Part shown: positions 1,673 to 34,100 of the stretch, one piece after another
How the letters are laid out: every line of letters starts with the position of its first letter
Numbering within the stretch: position 1 is the stretch's first letter
Virus genome (UHGV): UHGV-0200663
Source: a virus
Reading direction: 5' to 3' (one strand)
DNA: 35,660 bases
Position numbers and translations under genes: made by a program
The notes under the pieces: generated by a model
Seen by the model: only the letters and a program-made list of their open reading frames with translations
The model's database searches: none
Told to the model about the DNA's origin: nothing

Positions 1673-4600
1673 TCATCGCGTCGGAACCATAGGTGTTTGT
1701 TACCCCGGACAGGGCGCGATATGTACCCGGTAATGAATGACCTGCATTTCCCATAACGTAGAATTGCGGGCTTGATGAATACGTTCCGGCTGGATTGTAG
1801 GGCGCTGAAATTCCCACCGGCCCCAGCCGTGAGCCTGCGTAATATTGCCCTCTCACAAGCTTGATTTTTGTATCTCCGTCAGTCGTTCCCTGGTATGCAG
1901 CAATAATCAGTCCACCAACATCAGGGTCTCCCCACTCATTGCTGATGGTCCCCCCCATAACATTATAAATATCGGCTGTGGATATCTTTATTCGCTCCCA
2001 GCCAACAAGACGCCCGTAAATATATCGGTTAAACCAGATATCACCGTTTCCTGCATAAAACATTATGCATTTTGCAGCATCTGACGGGGGCTTTGTTTCG
2101 TACTGGTTCATCTGCCAGATAACATCAAGAATACCCGTAAAATAAACACCAGGTATGATTGTTCCCTGATTAGGGACGGTTACCGCATAACGTCCCGGAT
2201 AAGCGTTTGTTACCCACGTGGTCAGCTCCGATGTGTTTTTAAAGGTGAGCTGGTCTTCTTTTCCAAACGGATAACCAAATCCGAATGCACCAGGAAGAGC
2301 CAGTTTATCTTCCGCCCGGTCATAAATATCACTCTGGGCGCTGTACGTATTCTTTTGCAACTCAAGAACAGACAGCATGTCTTCCGCTGTAGTCTGAGCA
2401 AGCAGCAGCCGGGCTTTTTCTGACAGTGGAGACAGTGAAGCATTCCCGTCCTGATTAAAGCACAGAAGATTATCTGCCCGTTGCGTCAGTTCACTGATAG
2501 CCGTCAGCACATCGTTCAGCGGTTGTTTACCGGCCAGCGCGTTCATGATTGTCGTCGCAAAGTTCGGGTCATTACCCAGCGCCGCTGCCAGCTCGTTCAG
2601 CGTGTCCAGGGCTTCCGGTGACGAGTCAACCAGTGCAGCAAGCAGTTTGCGGACAAACGCCGCATTGGCTATTTCATTACCTGCTGCATCATCTGGTGGT
2701 GTTGGCGTGGACGGCGTTCCGGTCAGTGTCGGACTGTTCAGTGGCGCACGGGTTTCAATCAGTGCCCGGAGTGAAACCTCGTTGACTTTCAGGTTTTCCC
2801 AGCCAACCAGATAACCATCTCCGGTAGTCCAGTAGCGATTGTAATAAATGTGGCCGTTAATACCGTAAAAAATAATGATTTTAGCCACACATGCCGGATT
2901 GGGGTTGGTTTGAGGTTCCGGCCAGATAATTTCAACGGTACCCTTGAACAGCACGCCCTGTATTACCGCATTTGTATCTGCATAAACGGCATAGCGTCCG
3001 GGTTTTGCCGTTTTTACCCAGCGGAGAAAATCGGCCTCTGTTTTAAACTCGGTCCTGTCGCCGCTGGAAAATATTTTCCCGAATCCGAACATGCCAGGAA
3101 CCGCCAGACGGCCTTCGGTGCGGTCGTAAATACTCTCCTGCGCATCCTTTTGTGCTGCATTGCCCAGTTGTGGCGTCAGATTCGTCCAGGTGACCGGGGC
3201 GGAGATATTATCGCCACGAACGGTCATAAGAATCCGTCCGTCTTTTCCAAAGAACAGAACCAGCTTTGTTGCTGTCTGACTGGTTTTGTCGCCCCGGCCA
3301 TTATCCAGCCAGATAATTTCTGTTATTCCGGTTGTTTTTTCCGTTTGTGTGGAAAAGGTGTAATACCGTCCCGGGTGCAGGTTGTGAGCGGTTCTGGCTA
3401 CAGTCGCCATATCGCTGGCAATAATTGAACGTGCTCCGGCGTCCGTCATTCCGTAACCATACGCACCGGGAAGCGCAACACGGCCTTCCATGCTGTCGTA
3501 AAGGTCTATCTGAATATCCCTTACCGCTGCGCTTTTCAGCTCAAGCTCATTGCGCATGGCTTCCGCTGTGGCCTGTGCCAGCAGTGACCGGGCTTTTTCT
3601 GACAGCGGAGACAATGAAGCATTTCCGTCATGATTAAAGCACAGAAGATTATCTGCCCGTTCTTCCAGATTACTGATTGCGGTTAACACGTCACTGAGTG
3701 GTTGTTTACCCGCCAGCGCGTTCAAGATTGTTGTCGCAAACTCCGGGTCATTGCCCAGCGCCGCTGCCAGCTCGTTCAGTGTGTCCAGGGCTTCCGGTGA
3801 CGAGTCAACCAGCGCAGCAAGCAGTTTGCGAACAAATGCCGCGTTCGCCATCTCCAGCCCGGTCGCATCGTCCGGCGGGGTTGGTGTGGTGGGCGTGCCG
3901 ATGAATGCCGGGCTGTCCAGTGGCGCTTTTGTTTTCGTCTCGTCCATGACGGTTTTGACGGCTTTTGGCGTGGCGGCCAGTTCTTCGCTGTCGTTGTCTG
4001 TATCACTACAGAGTTGCACCAGGCCTTTTTGCGTCGTGCTGGCGTTGGTTCCCTTCAGGTCATCAACTATCCGTTGCGCCTCGTCCCTGTGCTGTTTCGC
4101 GCTCTGCTCGCTTTTTGCTGCCGCTTCGGCGCTGGCTTTTGCCTCACCGGTCAGCGTTGCGGCATCAGCAAGTTTATCGACCGCTTTCTGGACTATCTTA
4201 TCGGCATCTTTGACCGCCTGTTCTGCCCGGGCGGCATTCTGGTTGGTCTCAGAGGCCAGCTCTTCAGCTTTCTGCACATTACCCGCGATTTCTTCTGCAT
4301 CCTGCTGTATTTCCCCGGCGAGCGCTTCTGTATCCTGGCGGGCCTGTTCAGCAGCGGTGGCGTGCTCTCCTGCTTTTTCTGCGCTTTGCTGCGCCTGTTG
4401 CGCCAGCTCTTCGAATTTCTTCAGGGCTTCCGGGCGCAGGTCAATATCGGTTGCGCCCAGAAAATCATTCAGCGAACCGTCCGCTGAATCTTCATAAACG
4501 CGGATGACACCGATTTCTGAAAGGCGCTGTGTGCTTTGTGTCAGGCGAACGCTGTACACACCCGGCAGAACGGTGAAGTCATATTCCCCGTTCTGTGTGG

Positions 4601-26264: not shown

Positions 26265-26861
26265 TCACCCCCGCGTGGCGGACATGATGCCCAGAGGGGT
26301 ATCGATGATTTCCAGACAGGCGTCGGTCAGTTTTTCCATGCGGTTAAACCAGCCGTTCAGGTATTTACCCTGGGCGGGTTTTGACTTGATGATGTCGGCA
26401 TAAAAGCGGGAACGACGGACAATGCAGCGGGCCAACAACCAGTCCGGGGTGGACAGACTCACGGCCTTACGGGTACGCGGGCCGATGATGCCGTCAGCAT
26501 CCACATCAGCGGCTTCCTGCAAAATTCTGATGGCTTTTTTAACGCCATGCTGAACCGCTGCATCGAACACAAACATCGCCACGCCATCAGGCCACTGGTC
26601 ACATCCGGCAGGCAGCCAGTAATCGCGCCAGTAAATCTGCGCGACCTGTTCGCGGGTTAAATCCTTAATGCGGGTATCCGGTTTGCCGTCGCCGTTGACA
26701 TCGGTTTTGCCGTCAATCACACCGTCGCGGCGGTCAGAAATGCCGTATTTGGTTTCGCCGCCACGGTCAGTGGGGTCATTGACATAGACGCCTTCGATAT
26801 CGGGACGCAGAATGAAATTCAGCGCATGCTCAAAGGCCGGGGGGAATTTTTGATTTTCCAT
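26265..26861 (-). CDS. Endolysin, GH108-type N-terminal domain with C-terminal peptidoglycan-binding-like domain
   Basis: Motif VNDPTDRGGETKYGI near the N-terminus is characteristic of GH108 lysozymes; no N-terminal hydrophobic signal-anchor; first gene after a terminator-like hairpin. Confidence 0.6.
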   Translation of the reverse strand: MENQKFPPAFEHALNFILRPDIEGVYVNDPTDRGGETKYGISDRRDGVIDGKTDVNGDGKPDTRIKDLTREQVAQIYWRDYWLPAGCDQWPDGVAMFVFDAAVQHGVKKAIRILQEAADVDADGIIGPRTRKAVSLSTPDWLLARCIVRRSRFYADIIKSKPAQGKYLNGWFNRMEKLTDACLEIIDTPLGIMSATRG

Positions 26862-26946: not shown

Positions 26947-27396
26947 TTAAGGGCGTCGTGGCGGACGACGAACGGGGTGAGGCAGGTTCGGGGAGGGGTA
27001 AAACAAATCCGGCTGGTATTTATTGCGCTCCAGACGTCGCATCCGTTTGATGGCCTTGTAGACGGTTTTATACGTCACCCCGTAACGCTGAACCAGTTCA
27101 GGAATATTATGGCCGTTAAAATCACGCCAGATACGCATATCCCGGACAAGATTCTCCAGAATATTCCCCCTCGGAACATAAACCTGCATCCCGCCGATAT
27201 GGCGACAAATCGCCACAACCAGCTCAAGGGAATGGGCAGGGTCTGCGCCAATCCGGGCCAGCTCTTTACGCAGCAGTGCGTTCAGTTCAGAAAGTAACGC
27301 CGGATAAGCGGTGTTTTCCTGGTAATCATGAAGATATTCCAGAACGCTGTCGTCCCGGAGGTCTTCGAATAAATCCTGCTCTTTCATCTGTTTCAT
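26947..27396 (-). CDS. mor: Mor/C-family transcriptional activator (middle/late gene activator)
   Basis: 149 aa in ATGA overlap with the gemA-like gene, as gemA-mor in Mu. Conserved C-terminal region ..HSLELVVAICRHIGGMQVYVPRG...RIWRDFNG...YGVTYKTVYKAIKRMRR.. Confidence 0.6.
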   Translation of the reverse strand: MKQMKEQDLFEDLRDDSVLEYLHDYQENTAYPALLSELNALLRKELARIGADPAHSLELVVAICRHIGGMQVYVPRGNILENLVRDMRIWRDFNGHNIPELVQRYGVTYKTVYKAIKRMRRLERNKYQPDLFYPSPNLPHPVRRPPRRP

Positions 27397-27956
27397 ACAG
27401 CAATTCTCCCGCTGTTTCGTGCACGGGCATACGCACTGGTCAGTGCATCATAGCCGCGCAGCTCCCGCCCAGTTTCGCTCACAGGTAAAGGCACACCATG
27501 TCGGGCAAAGGCTTCACGGATGCAGCGCATATGCCACTGTTTGAGCGTTTCAAGCACAACCTGCAACGATTCCCCGTGACACCATGCCAGCGTGGAAACA
27601 CCCTGACCGCCATTACGTCTGGCTGTCAGGCGCTCAACGTATTTGTCCAGCGCAGCGTCGCTGATATCGGAAACGAAACCATCAAGGAACATCTGCTGCC
27701 AGATTTTGTAAATCTTCTCGCGCGGTGTGACATGCCCCTTAAAGCGACGGCGGGGATGTTTTTTCTGCTTCTTAAAACCGCGCTCTTTCATGGCATCGAG
27801 CACCCGTTCCAGTTGTGCAACGGACAGCTCGCGGCAACTGGTTTTGCCCGTGCACTGCACCAGAAAGGCGCGGTAAGTGTCATCGTCGAGTTGTAGATCG
27901 CGACGGGCGACATGAATTAATTTAATCAATGATGCGCGCATGATGCGTATCTCCAT
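27393..27956 (-). CDS. gemA: GemA-like early regulatory protein
   Basis: 187 aa immediately upstream of and coupled to the Mor-like gene, as in Mu. Confidence 0.5.
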   Translation of the reverse strand: MEIRIMRASLIKLIHVARRDLQLDDDTYRAFLVQCTGKTSCRELSVAQLERVLDAMKERGFKKQKKHPRRRFKGHVTPREKIYKIWQQMFLDGFVSDISDAALDKYVERLTARRNGGQGVSTLAWCHGESLQVVLETLKQWHMRCIREAFARHGVPLPVSETGRELRGYDALTSAYARARNSGRIAV

Positions 27957-28004: not shown

Positions 28005-28400
28005 ATGAAAATTGATCTGGAAATAATGAAAACCATTTTTAACGTTTTAATTGATTCTCCTGACGTATTCATAAAAAACACAGAACTCTCCGATGCTGTA
28101 CCCGACGAGAACGCGCTTTACTTTCACTTTCTGTTAATGCTGGATAATGGTTTTATTACCGGAACAGACCTGTTATCCACACCAGAATCAACAGGCGTTC
28201 ATTCCGGTCGAGACAAGGTTTCTTTCAGGTGCCGGTATATCCGTTTGTCACAGCGCGGTCTGGATTTTGCTAACGCACTGAACCAGCCGAAAATAATGAC
28301 CAGGCTCAAAAAAATCTGCATGGACGCTTCAATGGACATTCTTGTGTCTACAGGAAAATCCCTTATGAGCAACTGGATTCAGGAGCAACTGCACCTGTAG
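28005..28400 (+). CDS. Counter-oriented hypothetical protein (131 aa), candidate moron
   Basis: Only plus-strand ORF in a gap of the minus-strand early operon; ATG with AAGGA 8 nt upstream; visibly AT-richer than flanking phage DNA; 3' end overlaps the convergent minus-strand gene by 38 nt. Confidence 0.5.
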   Translation: MKIDLEIMKTIFNVLIDSPDVFIKNTELSDAVPDENALYFHFLLMLDNGFITGTDLLSTPESTGVHSGRDKVSFRCRYIRLSQRGLDFANALNQPKIMTRLKKICMDASMDILVSTGKSLMSNWIQEQLHL

Positions 28401-28698
28401 CATTCAGCAGATTCACCAGAGCGCTGGCCGCAATTGCTGCGGCCAGACAATCACCGCTATAACAAGCATTGTCGACAACGCTTTTTATTATTCTGATCAG
28501 CGATGGAAGTGTGGTGTTTTCCATAATTTCCAGCTTGTACTGCTTCAGCCAGTATTCATATTCAGCTTCATCAAATGGAAGCTGTCCCATCAGTTCTGTC
28601 AGAGTTGTATCGGCCTGCTCCGGTGTATATCCACTGACAACCAGTTGCGCCCGCATTTCAGCCCGATATTTAGGGTCGTCATAAATATGCTTACTCAT
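28363..28698 (-). CDS. Hypothetical early protein (111 aa)
   Basis: ATG at 28698 in ATGAGTAA overlap with upstream stop; the alternative ATG at 28731 lacks an RBS. Confidence 0.4.
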   Translation of the reverse strand: MSKHIYDDPKYRAEMRAQLVVSGYTPEQADTTLTELMGQLPFDEAEYEYWLKQYKLEIMENTTLPSLIRIIKSVVDNACYSGDCLAAAIAASALVNLLNATGAVAPESSCS

Positions 28699-28873
28699 TT
28701 CGTAATACCTCTTCGCAATAAAAGATTTCATTGGGATAACGTTTTTGTATGCGCTCCATCACCTGCATACATGCCTGCTCCGCGGGCCAGATTTTTTCCG
28801 TTACCGGAATGGCATCGCAGGCATCATTCCCACAGGTGCCAACCAGCAGGACAAAGCCAATTGACTTAATCAT
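28691..28873 (-). CDS. Small Cys-rich protein with N-terminal hydrophobic signal-like segment (60 aa)
   Basis: MIKSIGFVLLVGTCGNDAC..; four cysteines; ATG in ATGATTAA overlap with the upstream stop. Confidence 0.35.
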   Translation of the reverse strand: MIKSIGFVLLVGTCGNDACDAIPVTEKIWPAEQACMQVMERIQKRYPNEIFYCEEVLRNE

Positions 28874-29405
28874 GCTCGCTGATTTCCTGTGTTTCCGCCG
28901 GAACCGGTGAATAATCAAGAATGAGATAGCGCAGGACGTGGTCGGTGATATTCCAGCCACTGGAGCCACAAATAAAACGTCCCAGTCGGATATCGATATA
29001 CGCCATCACAAAACGGGGCATCCCCTGTTTGCACATCTCGTCATCCACTTCAGCAACGATGTAAACCGACTCGCAGGTCAGTACGCCTGTCGCAAATTCT
29101 TTTGCCAGTGCCGGAATGGCATTGCCTTCCAGCCAGGGCAAAGAGCGGCGGAAAGCGCACCATTGAGCATCATCAACAGCGGGGGGCTCCGTTGCGTTTC
29201 GTCTTACTGGCGGCGTCGGACGAGGGCGCGGAACGTCATAAAATCCGTTGCATTCAGTGAGAACTCCGGCATCAACCGCATCACGCAGGAAATACACCAT
29301 TGAGGAAGGTGGCATATTCATTTTTTCCGCCAGAACGCCACAGGTCAGACGTCCGTAAGCCCGTAATAATGTACTGACACCGTTCAGAACTTTTGCATCA
29401 ACCAT
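28866..29405 (-). CDS. Hypothetical early protein with possible N-terminal winged-helix region (179 aa)
   Basis: ATG at 29405 with GAGGA upstream; Pro-rich linker between two regions. Confidence 0.4.
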   Translation of the reverse strand: MVDAKVLNGVSTLLRAYGRLTCGVLAEKMNMPPSSMVYFLRDAVDAGVLTECNGFYDVPRPRPTPPVRRNATEPPAVDDAQWCAFRRSLPWLEGNAIPALAKEFATGVLTCESVYIVAEVDDEMCKQGMPRFVMAYIDIRLGRFICGSSGWNITDHVLRYLILDYSPVPAETQEISEHD

Positions 29406-29503
29406 TTTTTATTCCTCAGTAATCTGTTTCAGGCGCGAGCAATCCCCTGACGCATCGCGCCATAATTAAAAGAAAGTGAACTAATTAAATATTAATGGTG
29501 ATA
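29406..29503 (-). promoter_or_regulatory. AT-rich intergenic region with stem-loop between gam and downstream early genes (possible internal promoter/attenuator)
   Basis: Inverted repeat GGCGCGA-N16-TCGCGCC at 29432-29461 flanked by an AT-rich stretch. Confidence 0.3.
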
Positions 29504-30028
29504 TTAAATACCGGCTTCCTGTTCAAACGGAATAATAGAAAAATCTTCAATGCCCGATTTAACTGTAATTCCGGCAACACCTGCGACCGCTTTCGGTTCC
29601 AGTAAAATCGCTTCCTTGTTGATTTCCTGTTTCGTGCGAATAAAGCGTTGCAGGCCAAGACGCTCCAGTGTTTCCATCACCGCATCCACACCGCGAATAC
29701 TTACCGATGGTGGGCGCTGACGCCATGACACATCGCCGGTTACCAGGTTCGCCGTCTTCACCTTGCCGCCGTTCGTCAGTTCGTCACGGTTCGCTTCACA
29801 CCATCCCTGAACGCCTTTTGAAAGGGTTTCAATACTGGTTTTAAGGGGTGCAATCTGTGAGGCGTATTTCTCCGTAATCTCAGCGATAGCGTCATTCATT
29901 TCCGTTTCAAGTCGTGCCGCTTCGCGTTGCAGGTCACCAATCCGGCGGATATCACATACCACGGCATCGCGGGATTGCGGAACATAAGCCGCTGCGGCGT
30001 TCTTGATTCGTTTTGCTGGTTTAGCCAT
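29504..30028 (-). CDS. gam: Gam host-nuclease inhibitor (DNA end-binding protein)
   Basis: 174 aa, MAKPAKRIK...AAYVPQ..RDAV..RIGDLQRE..RLETEMNDAIAEITEK... closely matches Mu Gam from recall. Confidence 0.8.
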   Translation of the reverse strand: MAKPAKRIKNAAAAYVPQSRDAVVCDIRRIGDLQREAARLETEMNDAIAEITEKYASQIAPLKTSIETLSKGVQGWCEANRDELTNGGKVKTANLVTGDVSWRQRPPSVSIRGVDAVMETLERLGLQRFIRTKQEINKEAILLEPKAVAGVAGITVKSGIEDFSIIPFEQEAGI

Positions 30029-30657: not shown

Positions 30658-30885
30658 TTAACGCCAGATAATCTGGCAACCATTAAGGCGGGCCGTCCAT
30701 ACGGAACGGGCAACCCCGGATTTATGCTCCATAATCCTGACAGCATTCCTGACAAGCTCCGGTGGTGGGCAGGTGATTTCAAGCACCGGGCGGGCCACGC
30801 CCAGCCAGGATTCGTTGACGTGGCTGCCGCGCTCCTGTAACCAGGTCTTTACTTCCGTTGCCATTTTGATATTCCGTGACATCAT
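30658..30885 (-). CDS. kil: Kil-like small early protein
   Basis: 75 aa, immediately downstream of B with ATGA overlap, matching the position and size of Mu kil. Confidence 0.45.
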
Positions 30886-31841
30886 GATTCAGCATCCCCT
30901 TGCACACCCAGCAGCATCGAAACATCAACGTCCTGGTCTAACTCTTTGTAAGCCTCACGCAGATAATCCTCATTAACACGTTCGCCTTTACCGAAGGCAT
31001 TCATAACAGCAAGGCGCAGCGTTTGATTCATAATGCGGAGCGCACCAGGCGTTTGTGCAATCTGCTGTAATAATTCCCGTTCATTTTTCCCGGTAATCTG
31101 CCAGGCATCCGCAATTGCGTTTACATCGTCTTCTTTGGTTTTATTAATTGCTGTGCGCTTTGCAATACGGGAAAACAGACGGGCAAACTCAATTGTTCTG
31201 TCGCCATTAGCGGTCATATTTGAATAAACACGGTGATTCCCCATCAGAACAAGGCCAATACAGGCGGACTCCTGTAACAGACGGAGCTCTTCCAGCGCTT
31301 CGGTGTCAAGGTGATCAGCTTCGTCAACAATGACCAGTCCCTGCGTTCCTTTCAGGCGGCGACGCAGGTTACGGGAAAGCGGCCCTTTGCGACATGGTGC
31401 ATTATTCATTCCCAACTCTTCGGCAAGTTCAGTCAGACATTCCAGCGTACTGGCACGGGATGGCGCAATGGTGATCATCCAGACATTATTATTAGTGCGA
31501 CAAAATTCACGGGCTGCTTCGCTTTTACCCACTCCTGGATTACCGCAGATAACAGCAATGGTTCCGGTCAGATTAGCAAAACGCATACTTGTCCAGATTT
31601 GACGGGCTGTTGCAGTTTCCACAAAACGCGGGGGTTCCGGCAGTTCTTCTGCGCGATGATAGTTTTCCAGCCAGCGTTCCAGTGTGCGCCCGACTGATTC
31701 CATGTTGCCGTTATATTTATCATTCACAAAACCACTGACTGTGCTCAGGGCCACGCCTGATTCACTGGCGATGCGTGTCAGCGTGGTTTCTCCATTTTCT
31801 ACAAGCGTGCGCAGTCCTGCGCGAATATCGGAAATATTCAT
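30882..31841 (-). CDS. B: MuB transposition ATPase / target DNA activator
   Basis: 319 aa, N-terminal HTH then Walker A GNPGVGKS; directly downstream of transposase A. Confidence 0.85.
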
Positions 31842-31879: not shown

Positions 31880-33871
31880 TTAAATGGCTTTTTTACGTCT
31901 TTTCTGTTCCAGAATATCCAGTGACTGATTCAGATATTCATCACGAGCGGGTTCGTATTTATCATCGGGGGTGCGATATTTAACCCGTACTGTGTTACCC
32001 ACAGGCCGGAAAATACCAACAACCCTTGATTCTGGTGCTGCTGGTTCGGCTATCTGCGGCAGCAGTTCAGCAACTTCCAGCGCGTCCATTTGTTTCTGCG
32101 CCTTAATGGCTGCTTTAGTTGCAGATTTCAGTTGTTTCTGGCGGCGGCGATATTCACGGCCTGCCGCAGCATCATTAAATGCAACAGGTGCCAAACATTC
32201 CGCTTCACAGATAAACCGACCGTCTAGGGTGTAGCAATAAACTGTGCTGTGTAGCTGCTGCGGATCAAACCTGACCACAACTTTTTTCACGCCTGCATTC
32301 ATTAACGCCATGTTGTAATAAACGTTTTTCGCGCCTTTAAGGGAGCCGCCAACTTTAAGCGTAAACTCGCCTTTGCGTGAAACGTTCACCGCTTCGGCAG
32401 GCAGTAACAGCATCCGTTTTTGTTCTTCGGTTGGCTTACGCACAATCGTTCTGGCGTATTCACGCTCGAAAACATCATCAAACGAGAGTTTGCCCCCGCA
32501 CATTTCTGTTTCACGGCCTGTTCTGGCATTGAACATCGCCACACCTTCAGCAAGGGTTTTCAGAAACAGCTCTGCATCAACAGCACGGTCGCCATAGTTA
32601 TCAGGTTTTGCCTGCGGATTTGGCCCCGTATATGCGCCAGCCAGTGCCGGATGCTTATCAACGTATTCCTCAAGCCCACCAACACCGAAAGCACGTTCAA
32701 CAGGTTTTGCCTGGCCCCAGCCTTTACCGGCAACAACGCTTGTCCAGTGCATTTTCGCGCCCATCAGTAAAAACAGTCCCTTTGGGTCGTCCTCTTTCAC
32801 CTTAAAGCGGTAACGATTGGGCGCGCCCCCCGTCAGCCATTTATTCGCTGCCCCACGGGTGTTATCAATGGTGATGTGAAAATCTTCCGGGATGCCGTAG
32901 CGTGTCACCACATCCATGAACGAGAGGCGAATTGAATCAATGTTCTCGCTCACATCGCAGCGCCAGCCCAGAATTTTTCGGGTTTTCACATCCTGCCAGA
33001 ACCATGTTTTCGGGCGGATCACATCACCGTTAAACCAGCGTACAAAGACGTTATGCAGATAACCGTCGCCGTTGATCCACTGCATGGCGTCCAGGTGTTC
33101 CACAGTTCGCTGCTGTGCCGGTATCAGATGCATCAGTGCATGTTCACCTTCACGGCAGGCAACAACCATTGCCTCGTCCAGTTGCTGAATCCGGCGAAAG
33201 GCCGTGGCACGGGAGGGAATATTCCAGCCATGCTCACGTGCTGCCAGTTCCAGACGCTCATAACATTTGCGAAAGGCGGGTTTTTCCGGTCGCAGATAAT
33301 CTGCAATCAGAAACTGCCAGGCATCCTCGTCAAATTCACTTTTGTGAACGTTGCGACGGGATGCACCACGTCCATCAACAAGCGCAGCCGCCCAGTCAGG
33401 CTTCGCAAACTTCTGTACCTGGTAATACTTGTCACGCAAAGTGGATGCACTGACCTGGTAATGCCCTGCAACGGTCGCAAAAGCCGTTTTTGTTGAAATC
33501 CCCTGGTTCAGCATTTCGTCTGCGGCCTGAACTGCAGGCAACCATTTTTCAGCAAGTCTGCGCTGGGAATCGCTGGCGTTATCCCATTTGCTCCACAGCA
33601 CCTCACGATCATAATCGTGGGCTTCCAGCGTGGGGCGGGCGATTTCAAAACGGCCCTGGCTTGTTTCAATCTCTCCTTGTCTAAGCAATAACGCCGCTTT
33701 CGCTTCAACAGGTAAAGAGTTAGCATTGTATTCAATTGCTTTACCTCCTTTGACACCTGCTCTAGTGCGGTTTTGCCATCCTTGCTTCTTAGCGACATAA
33801 ATCACACCAGCTGATGTTTTCGGCAAGCCAGGAAGATTTGCACACTCTTTCGGTGACACCCAAAGTTCCAT
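31880..33871 (-). CDS. A: MuA DDE transposase
   Basis: From ATG at 33871, [35 protein letters not shown]... matches the Mu transposase N-terminus from recall; 663 aa; start overlaps ner stop. Confidence 0.9.
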
Positions 33872-33872
33872 A

Positions 33873-34100
33873 TTATTCACCTGCTTGATATCGGCTAGGC
33901 CAGATGACTTCCGGTTTAGTTTCAAGGGCGTTAGCAATAATCTGTTCGCCCTTTGGCCAGTGCCGTTCTAGCGCATTAGCTAATGTTGTTGGCGCATAAC
34001 CAAACTGCCGAGAAAGAGCTGATAAAGAGAGCTTTCTTTTCTTAAGTCCCGCAATCACATCAGCACGATGCCAATCACGGACCTTTTCGTTGGAACACAT
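33873..34100 (-). CDS. ner: Ner DNA-binding early regulator
   Basis: 75 aa, first early gene after the operator region, divergent from the repressor gene. Confidence 0.8.

Follow-up and report, generated by a model that had tools for sequence, protein, structure and literature searches.

The virus genome UHGV-0200663 was analysed as a single stretch of 35,660 nt, referred to here as the window. Based on its listing of open reading frames (ORFs) and on megablast, the window is a reverse-oriented Mu-like prophage, with transposase A, B, gam, gemA and mor all recognizable (Table 1). The gam-gemA interval, which is the semi-essential (SE) part of the Mu early operon, holds three chained genes encoding proteins of 179, 60 and 111 amino acids (aa), and a 131-aa gene of opposite orientation lies between them and gemA. 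In Mu, the SE region belongs to one long early transcript shared with A and B, contains 14 ORFs that are mostly without assigned function, and can be deleted, with better host survival after the deletion (PMC3325207; PMC3820752). A reading made from the letters of the window alone (the sequence-only reading) had placed the genes in this semi-essential region and described them as three genes chained via start/stop overlaps. The placement is right, and the chain is exactly as described, with overlaps of 8 nt each; such overlaps are general throughout the early operon. Comparison with related loci reveals a conserved first gene followed by two cargo genes that are exchanged independently of it and of each other.

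The same four genes are called by NCBI PGAP in a 98.9% identical prophage of E. coli STEC383. For the third gene, a longer ORF of 122 aa starts at 28731. This start is disfavoured and the 111-aa start is the better one, since the PHROG profile aligns from residue 12 of the longer ORF onwards and the 11 added codons (MKSFIAKRYYEM) come from the 3' end of the 60-aa gene read in an alternative frame; in one other locus (L008) the MKSFIAKRYYEM codons also precede an unrelated gene. The ratio of non-synonymous to synonymous polymorphism (pN/pS) is 0.16-0.27 for the homologue of Mu gp11 encoded by the first gene (1.27 against one near-identical relative, with five substitutions only), 0.07-0.39 for the 60-aa gene among close relatives, and 0.36-0.40 for the 111-aa gene against two diverged relatives with ~23 substitutions per comparison. 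A coding signal, whose absence would have refuted the sequence-only reading, is thus present with pN/pS well below 1, and all three genes are under purifying selection.

Table 1. Features of the window, with positions on the whole stretch, and predicted regions of the 179-aa protein in residue numbers
Feature	Position	Strand	Basis or remark
transposase A	31880-33937	minus	ORF listing and megablast
B	30882-31841	minus	ORF listing and megablast
gam	29504-30028	minus	ORF listing and megablast
AT-rich spacer, 16.7% GC, gam stop codon to hairpin	29462-29503	.	GC count
hairpin GGCGCGA-N16-TCGCGCC, gam 3' end	29432-29461	minus	read from sequence
gp11 Shine-Dalgarno (SD) sequence GAGG, 8 nt before gp11 ATG	29414-29417	minus	read from sequence
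gp11 orthologue, 179 aa	28866-29405	minus	ORF read from sequence
gp11, predicted N-terminal winged-helix-like domain	~residues 1-57		AlphaFold
gp11, predicted disordered Pro/Arg-rich linker	residues 58-110		AlphaFold
gp11, Gp11_C domain	residues 90-167		Pfam
junction ATGATTAA, 60-aa gene start over gp11 stop	28866-28873	minus	plus strand ttaatcat
60-aa gene	28691-28873	minus	read from internal ATG of a 92-aa ORF
junction GAGGTATTACGAAATGAGTAA, SD, spacer, 111-aa ATG and 60-aa stop	28691-28711	minus	read from sequence
junction ATGAGTAA, 111-aa gene start over 60-aa gene stop	28691-28698	minus	plus strand ttactcat
111-aa gene	28363-28698	minus	ATG at 28698; last early-strand gene before the counter-oriented gene
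counter-oriented 131-aa gene, DUF2513-like family (phrog_585)	28005-28400	plus	
gemA	27393-27956	minus	ORF listing and megablast
mor	26947-27396	minus	ORF listing and megablast

Gene exchange between gp11 and gemA

The 179-aa protein matches the Pfam family PF25754 (Gp11_C) over profile positions 1-78 of 78 (133.6 bits, cut-off 27, E 3.3e-39), and phrog_1949 over positions 1-174 of 176 (3e-104). It is 89% identical to Mu gp11 (Mup11, NP_050615; PF25754; phrog_1949), the two proteins being 176-179 aa long and collinear over residues 1-176. Both genes lie directly after gam and its 3' hairpin and the products have an identical domain layout, while the last 6-9 residues differ, with EISEHD in the window protein and QEVA in Mu. 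These matches identify the 179-aa gene as the orthologue of Mu gp11, conserved beside gam in enterobacterial Mu relatives. The gam-gp11 order is kept in Mu, SfMu and all loci where gam was detected, and gam lies upstream of gp11 wherever the mapped locus reached far enough. Among the matches listed from 5.8e9 proteins, the relatives of gp11 belong to E. coli, Salmonella and further Enterobacterales.

Using gp11 as the anchor, 80 IMG/VR loci were mapped together with Mu, SfMu and STEC383 (a contig scan with a single gp11 sequence returned one locus only; an alignment query would have suited better). The architecture counts cover 71 loci and comprise 29 listed types plus one empty locus, that is, 30 architectures built from about a dozen gene families, and the distance from gp11 to gemA is anywhere between 63 bp and 3.4 kb. 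The Mu gp12 family is found in 47 of these loci, the Sf14/w111 family in 45, the Mu gp13 family in 30, the Mu gp14 family in 24 and the 60-aa family in 15, with the remaining families rarer. In the empty locus (L033, IMGVR_UViG_3300045988_125570, 3957-4020), gp11 and gemA are separated by a 63-bp gap containing no gene, so everything in the slot appears dispensable for that element. A survey of 5,426 complete E. coli genomes found gp11-like DNA in 90, roughly 50 of which also carry the 60-aa gene; the 111-aa gene is present in ~5 genomes and the 131-aa gene in 1. In megablast alignments with E. coli genomes the homology breaks at gene boundaries (query positions 426, ~740 and ~951), and the GC content of the cassettes is 42-46%, versus 54% for the window. 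The gp11-gemA interval is a recombination and cassette hotspot, and the 60-aa and 111-aa genes are independent cargo cassettes within it. The variable hotspot for which the sequence-only reading had suggested looking by comparative genomics is therefore there; the trio that it had treated as a unit is not, as it resolves into a core gene, gp11, and two separate cassettes.

That the three genes nevertheless form one functional system, such as an obligate complex or pathway, would explain their translational coupling. The 8-nt overlaps imply co-translation at set ratios, and the 60-aa gene lies directly after gp11 in all 15 IMG/VR loci of this lineage in which it is present. However, in most loci the genes accompanying gp11 are Mu gp12/gp13 and not the 60-aa gene, in L033 gp11 stands alone, at least four different genes follow the 60-aa gene, and the latter also occurs in lambdoid phages without gp11. 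The 111-aa gene is also far out of step with the 60-aa gene in E. coli (~5 against ~50 genomes), and overlaps of this kind are not peculiar to these genes. A single system is thus very unlikely.

The gene boundaries themselves suggest how exchange could occur. The final seven codons of the 60-aa gene, GAA GAG GTA TTA CGA AAT GAr, carry both an SD sequence (GAGG, 28708-28711) and, 9 nt further on, the ATG of the 111-aa gene. Across loci (L008-L027), this SD-ATG combination serves at least four downstream genes that are unrelated to one another, including the 111-aa gene, an Sf14-like gene, a Mu gp14-like gene and another ORF. The tail of the 60-aa gene (EKVLRDENTDDY; …VLRDENTDDY) also ends a variant of the 111-aa protein that has an Sf14-like gene behind it. 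Similarly, the gp11 tail covaries with the next gene, being EISEHD before the 60-aa gene and QEVA before Mu gp12, which is explained by the tails encoding the junction to different downstream genes. We infer that the SD-ATG junctions couple translation and may also act as short homology patches for cassette exchange.

The gp11 protein and the element at the gam 3' end

In an alignment of 28 gp11 sequences, 53 columns are invariant, including Cys22, Cys83 and Cys111. AlphaFold predicts an N-terminal domain of three helices plus a wing, and this three-helix bundle with its beta wing superposes on solved winged helix-turn-helix (HTH) domains. The C-terminal domain is better modelled, with a block-mean predicted local distance difference test (pLDDT) score of 70-84 over residues 111-160. 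Residues 13-49 align with the Pfam HTH profiles HTH_20 (E 0.25) and HTH_24 (E 0.3), both below the cut-offs. Since the gp11 model as a whole is poor (pLDDT 55), a winged-helix-like N-domain is only moderately supported. The sequence-only reading had seen a winged-helix-like start in the 179-aa product; the predicted fold agrees with it, and the HTH profile matches are non-significant.

These features raise the alternative that gp11 encodes a DNA-binding auxiliary factor for early regulation or for the replication or transposition of Mu, and is not an accessory or anti-defence gene. Its role would then presumably be an 'arm'-type function of the SE region, as mapped in the older Mu literature. 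The constant adjacency to gam wherever the locus reaches, across the 80 gp11-anchored loci and in Mu, D108, SfMu and Yersinia Mu-like phages, is consistent with such a role, as are the purifying selection on gp11, its predicted winged-helix-like N-domain and the 53 invariant columns with their three cysteines. On the other hand, the HTH profile matches are non-significant, the family is confined to Enterobacterales prophages among the matches listed, and the entire SE region is dispensable in Mu. We regard such an auxiliary role as possible but doubtful.

Upstream of gp11, the AT-rich stretch and the hairpin with a 7-bp stem that the sequence-only reading had noted downstream of gam are both present, and the spacer is partly conserved across loci. 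A 7-bp stem by itself means little, as such stems are common in the window (115 versus ~39 in shuffles). RNA folding of the gam-gp11 intergenic region gave z = -2.6. A ~45-nt element, TTTTAATTATGGCGC..GCGTCAGGGGA.TGC..GCGCCTGAA (29425-29470, minus strand; loci L008-L087), is nearly invariant and is kept even where Gam is only 57-60% identical. When a ~550-bp gene (of DUF5420 type in SfMu) is inserted before gp11, the hairpin stays beside gam, and the sequences diverge immediately 3' of the element, where a second variable gene slot, that of the DUF5420-type insert, starts. The hairpin is a conserved cis-element of the gam 3' end that lies outside the trio, of which it had previously been taken as a feature. 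It was rejected as an intrinsic terminator: no U-tract is present, as the stem is followed by TGAAACAGATTACTGAGG without a T run on the transcribed strand, and the terminator scan does not report it. Promoters and terminator-like sites are no more frequent in the region than in shuffles. A covarying RNA structure was also rejected, as 0 of 12 pairs changed on both sides and the 91% pairing arises via sequence invariance; a search of the hairpin against Rfam gave no match.

The cargo genes and their convergent partner

All PHROGs matched by the three proteins are entries of unknown function, with no PHROG of known function among them. Pfam, NCBIfam and PADLOC returned nothing useful for the 60-, 111- and 131-aa proteins, and PDB searches with single sequences and profiles gave nothing significant. 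Literature searches on the functions of gp11-gp14 and on PF25754 yielded nothing relevant, the matches to Mup being mouse proteins.

The 60-aa protein matches phrog_16556 at 5.7e-28. The four cysteines that had been seen in it are all invariant in its family (C14, C19, C35 and C53), as is the motif CGxDACDAxP. Their spacing, C14-x4-C19-x15-C35-x17-C53, lacks the two CxxC knuckles of a zinc ribbon or CxxC zinc finger. The AlphaFold model (pLDDT 90.2) has the order beta(2-14)-beta(19-29)-alpha(32-45)-beta(50-59), in which the hydrophobic N-terminus (residues 2-14) forms a core strand of a three-stranded sheet, with a pLDDT of 91 over residues 1-10. A Foldseek search of the model against the PDB found nothing at E < 0.7. 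The model points to a compact cytoplasmic beta-beta-alpha-beta mini-protein.

The sequence-only reading had called this product exported-looking. Indeed, its hydrophobic N-terminus IGFVLLVG is followed by an invariant Cys, and the lipobox pattern [LVI][ASTVI][GAS]C is matched in 3 of 6 family members (for example VSAC and ISSC). Together with the four invariant cysteines without CxxC spacing, this could indicate an exported or lipid-anchored Cys-rich peptide, such as a superinfection-exclusion lipoprotein with periplasmic disulfides. The details argue otherwise. The window copy reads VGTC, with Thr at -1. The PROSITE rule PS51257 for lipoproteins, which asks for a Cys at residue 15-35 and at least one Lys/Arg within the first 7 residues, is failed by all 6 family members tested: the first Cys comes too early, at residue 12-14, in 6 of 6, and 5 of 6 have no Lys/Arg in the first seven residues, the window copy having Lys3. 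In 2 of 3 lambdoid homologues, in-frame stops 1-8 codons upstream of the ATG exclude a longer signal peptide. For the window gene, a longer N-terminus with a basic n-region (from GTG at 28969 or an upstream TTG) was rejected, as these starts have no SD and are unconserved, and the stops stand against them in the same 2 of 3 homologues. Moreover, residues 2-14 are predicted to pair within the sheet and not to form a separate helix, and lipidation of Cys14 would leave an odd number of cysteines. The 60-aa protein thus fits neither the signal-peptide nor the lipobox rules, and export appears highly improbable.

Close relatives of the 60-aa protein occur in Mu-like prophages of E. coli, Shigella and Salmonella, and relatives with 42-57% identity in lambdoid phages of Yersinia, Hafnia and Aeromonas; in total, 149 IMG/VR stretches encode a member of the family. 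The lambdoid homologues are distal genes of the early-left operon, with recombination genes on one side and xis/int on the other. Among 57 lambdoid loci, the immediate upstream neighbour encodes RecT in 14 and a 170-aa protein in 26, and the homologue directly precedes the integrase gene in 15. The 170-aa protein (L118-L175) has a Cys-rich N-terminus and a coiled-coil segment and matches no Pfam entry. This position, with exchange at gene boundaries, resembles that of lambdoid early-left accessory genes ('moron'/exo-xis-type). The window differs in being a transposable phage and in its boundary, an SD-ATG that forms part of the 3' coding sequence of the preceding gene. 'Linker/boundary sequences' are a feature of lambdoid phages.

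A lone homologue, 57-59% identical, was also found in Tatumella saanichensis and metagenome contigs (L091-L095, 4001-4198), in an apparently non-phage chromosomal context with genes for IraP, PsiF, Inhibitor_I78, Rce1-like and OsmC proteins among its neighbours, an arrangement conserved in five independent assemblies. An antisense terminator-like hairpin (GCCTGCTCCGCGGGC and then CAGATTTTTT; 28773-28797, plus strand) falls within the 60-aa gene of the window, 373 nt downstream of the stop of the 131-aa gene.

An alternative reading is that the 60-aa protein inhibits a host nuclease or defence system as a mobile factor of anti-defence or anti-RecBCD type. In both phage types the gene is near genes for DNA ends and recombination: here it is the second gene after Gam, and it immediately follows RecT in 14 of the 57 lambdoid loci and in Aeromonas phage pAEv1818. 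It is also small, horizontally mobile and low in GC. However, its product has only 6% sequence identity to AcrIC8, the commonest upstream neighbour (26 of 57) is the 170-aa protein of no known function, and the orphan copy of Tatumella sits outside a phage context. We therefore consider an inhibitor of this specific kind unlikely, though worth keeping in view.

The block gp12-gp13-gp14-gp15 of Mu provides a parallel to the cargo of the window. It occupies the same gp11-gemA slot with small translationally coupled ORFs, including a 60-aa Cys-rich gp13, a ~100-aa gp14 and a counter-oriented gp15 that overlaps gp14 convergently. Its genes have no sequence homology to those of the window, and gp12 is absent from the window. 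Mu gp13 is of an 8-Cys CxxC zinc-ribbon type with weak matches to DnaJ_CXXCXGXG and rubredoxin, whereas the window protein has C-x4-C...C...C spacing and a predicted beta-beta-alpha-beta fold. The idea that the 60-aa gene and Mu gp13 exclude each other was rejected, as 4 loci have a Mu13-related Cys-rich ORF after the 60-aa gene.

The 111-aa protein is helical and matches phrog_27371 at 1.3e-63. Its close copies were found in E. coli and Shigella only, using a word-indexed search, and an exhaustive HMMER search of 1.8e9 representative proteins gave 8 relatives, several of which are repeat-rich giant proteins and were disregarded. A tblastn search with the protein against the phage collection found no match. 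BLASTP does not align it with SfMu gp14 (YP_009152200), and their relation is visible at the profile level only: two ~102-aa matches of 35-36% identity bridge the two proteins, single-linkage BLASTP joins their groups, and hhalign pairs the 111-aa protein with the SfMu gp14 group at a probability of 94.4% (E 8.8e-8, 100 aligned columns). The two share a length class, a position late on the early strand and the motifs L-I-x-x-G near the N-terminus and (D/G)-x-x-AA-x-AA-x-x-L. They differ by a pairwise identity of 17-23% and by an insertion of 5 residues in the window clade that contains Cys (NACYSGDC). The 111-aa protein is, on this profile evidence, a divergent member of the SfMu gp14 family, although SfMu gp14 has been described as 'unique to SfMu' (PMC4406740). 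In the PDB, domain III of RuvA aligns with the N-terminal portion of the joint w111/Sf14 profile at a non-significant E of 0.04, a hint of a possible UBA-like three-helix module in the family.

The counter-oriented 131-aa protein matches phrog_585 at 1.5e-11 and is 32-34% identical to its relatives. Of five family members, four match DUF2513 (PF10711), with a best E of 6.6e-5, and in this they resemble the winged-helix-like DUF2513 proteins; the window copy itself matches nothing in Pfam at E <= 1. Its gene overlaps the 111-aa gene convergently at the 3' end by 38 nt (28363-28400). In 19 of 19 loci, genes of the DUF2513-like family converge on and overlap a gene of the Sf14/w111 family, and 17 of these overlaps are 38-39 nt long. 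The alternative counter-oriented gene, of the Mu gp15 family, converges on a gene of the Mu gp14 family in 21 of 21 loci. Convergent overlapping pairs beside gemA are thus of two fixed kinds (L007-L084). The 111-aa gene is therefore tied more tightly to the counter-oriented gene than to the genes upstream of it, and this pairing could reflect either mere physical overlap or a functional pair.

A functional pair might act as antagonists in the choice between lysis and lysogeny, with the DUF2513-like gene on in the repressed prophage and silenced at induction by convergent Pe transcription, and with the Sf14-family protein possibly also neutralising the DUF2513-like protein. The fixed convergence and near-constant overlap, together with the parallel Mu14-Mu15 pair, speak for such antagonists. 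Both the 111- and the 131-aa copies of the window are also the most divergent in their own families, which suggests co-divergence. However, physical overlap alone enforces co-inheritance, a consensus promoter scan gave none for the 131-aa gene, and Sf14-family genes lack the partner in 26 loci. An antagonistic pair is accordingly rather unlikely.

Beyond gemA and mor, the window prophage departs from Mu. The gene directly after mor encodes a GH108-type lysin (26265-26861, minus strand); in Mu, mor is followed by gp18-gp20 and the late activator C, and the middle region is organized differently.

Interpretation of the interval

As a whole, the data are best explained by an SE interval of Mu-like type in which a conserved gp11 is followed by two exchangeable cargo genes encoding dispensable proteins that bind host or competitor components, a reading we consider probable, with room for doubt. 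By analogy with Mu, all three genes would be expressed on the long Pe early transcript after induction. Translation would proceed by coupling, each downstream ATG lying within the last codons of the upstream gene, where its SD is also encoded, and phages may exchange cassettes at these conserved junctions. The 60-aa protein would fold as a cytoplasmic domain. In function, the products would most likely be small and dispensable, binding proteins or DNA of the host or of competitors, and hence modulators of host-takeover or anti-defence type rather than enzymes or exported factors.

Several points weigh against this interpretation. Coupling and Pe-driven expression are deduced from sequence and from Mu. 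PADLOC, NCBIfam and PDB sequence searches gave no match for the three proteins, and PADLOC found no homology to described defence or anti-defence families. The winged-helix assignment depends on the weak gp11 model, the 60-aa model was built on 7 sequences only, and four invariant cysteines without CxxC pairs would also suit a disulfide-bonded exported protein. The pN/pS of the 111-aa gene, lastly, is based on few substitutions.

A more far-reaching version would make the SE region an integron-like array with dedicated SD-ATG swaps, the 60-aa protein a mobile cytoplasmic inhibitor of a nuclease or defence system, and Sf14/DUF2513 an antagonistic module switched between lysogeny and lysis. This combination seems improbable. 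In the plainer reading of an SE interval with exchangeable cargo, the region is a typical and already catalogued part of the Mu-like early operon, an ordinary accessory-gene cluster. Its by-products of interest are the junction cassettes, the two fixed convergent pairs, the element at the gam 3' end and a 60-aa protein found in both transposable and lambdoid phages.

The SE region of Mu has for decades consisted mostly of unassigned ORFs and been known as toxic to the host. This stretch of it is now sorted into a conserved core gene, gp11, freely exchangeable cassettes and fixed convergent gene pairs, and the misleading lead of a secreted peptide has been removed. The 60-aa protein common to lambdoid phages, the Sf14/DUF2513 pair and the conserved gam 3' element are candidates for functional screens.

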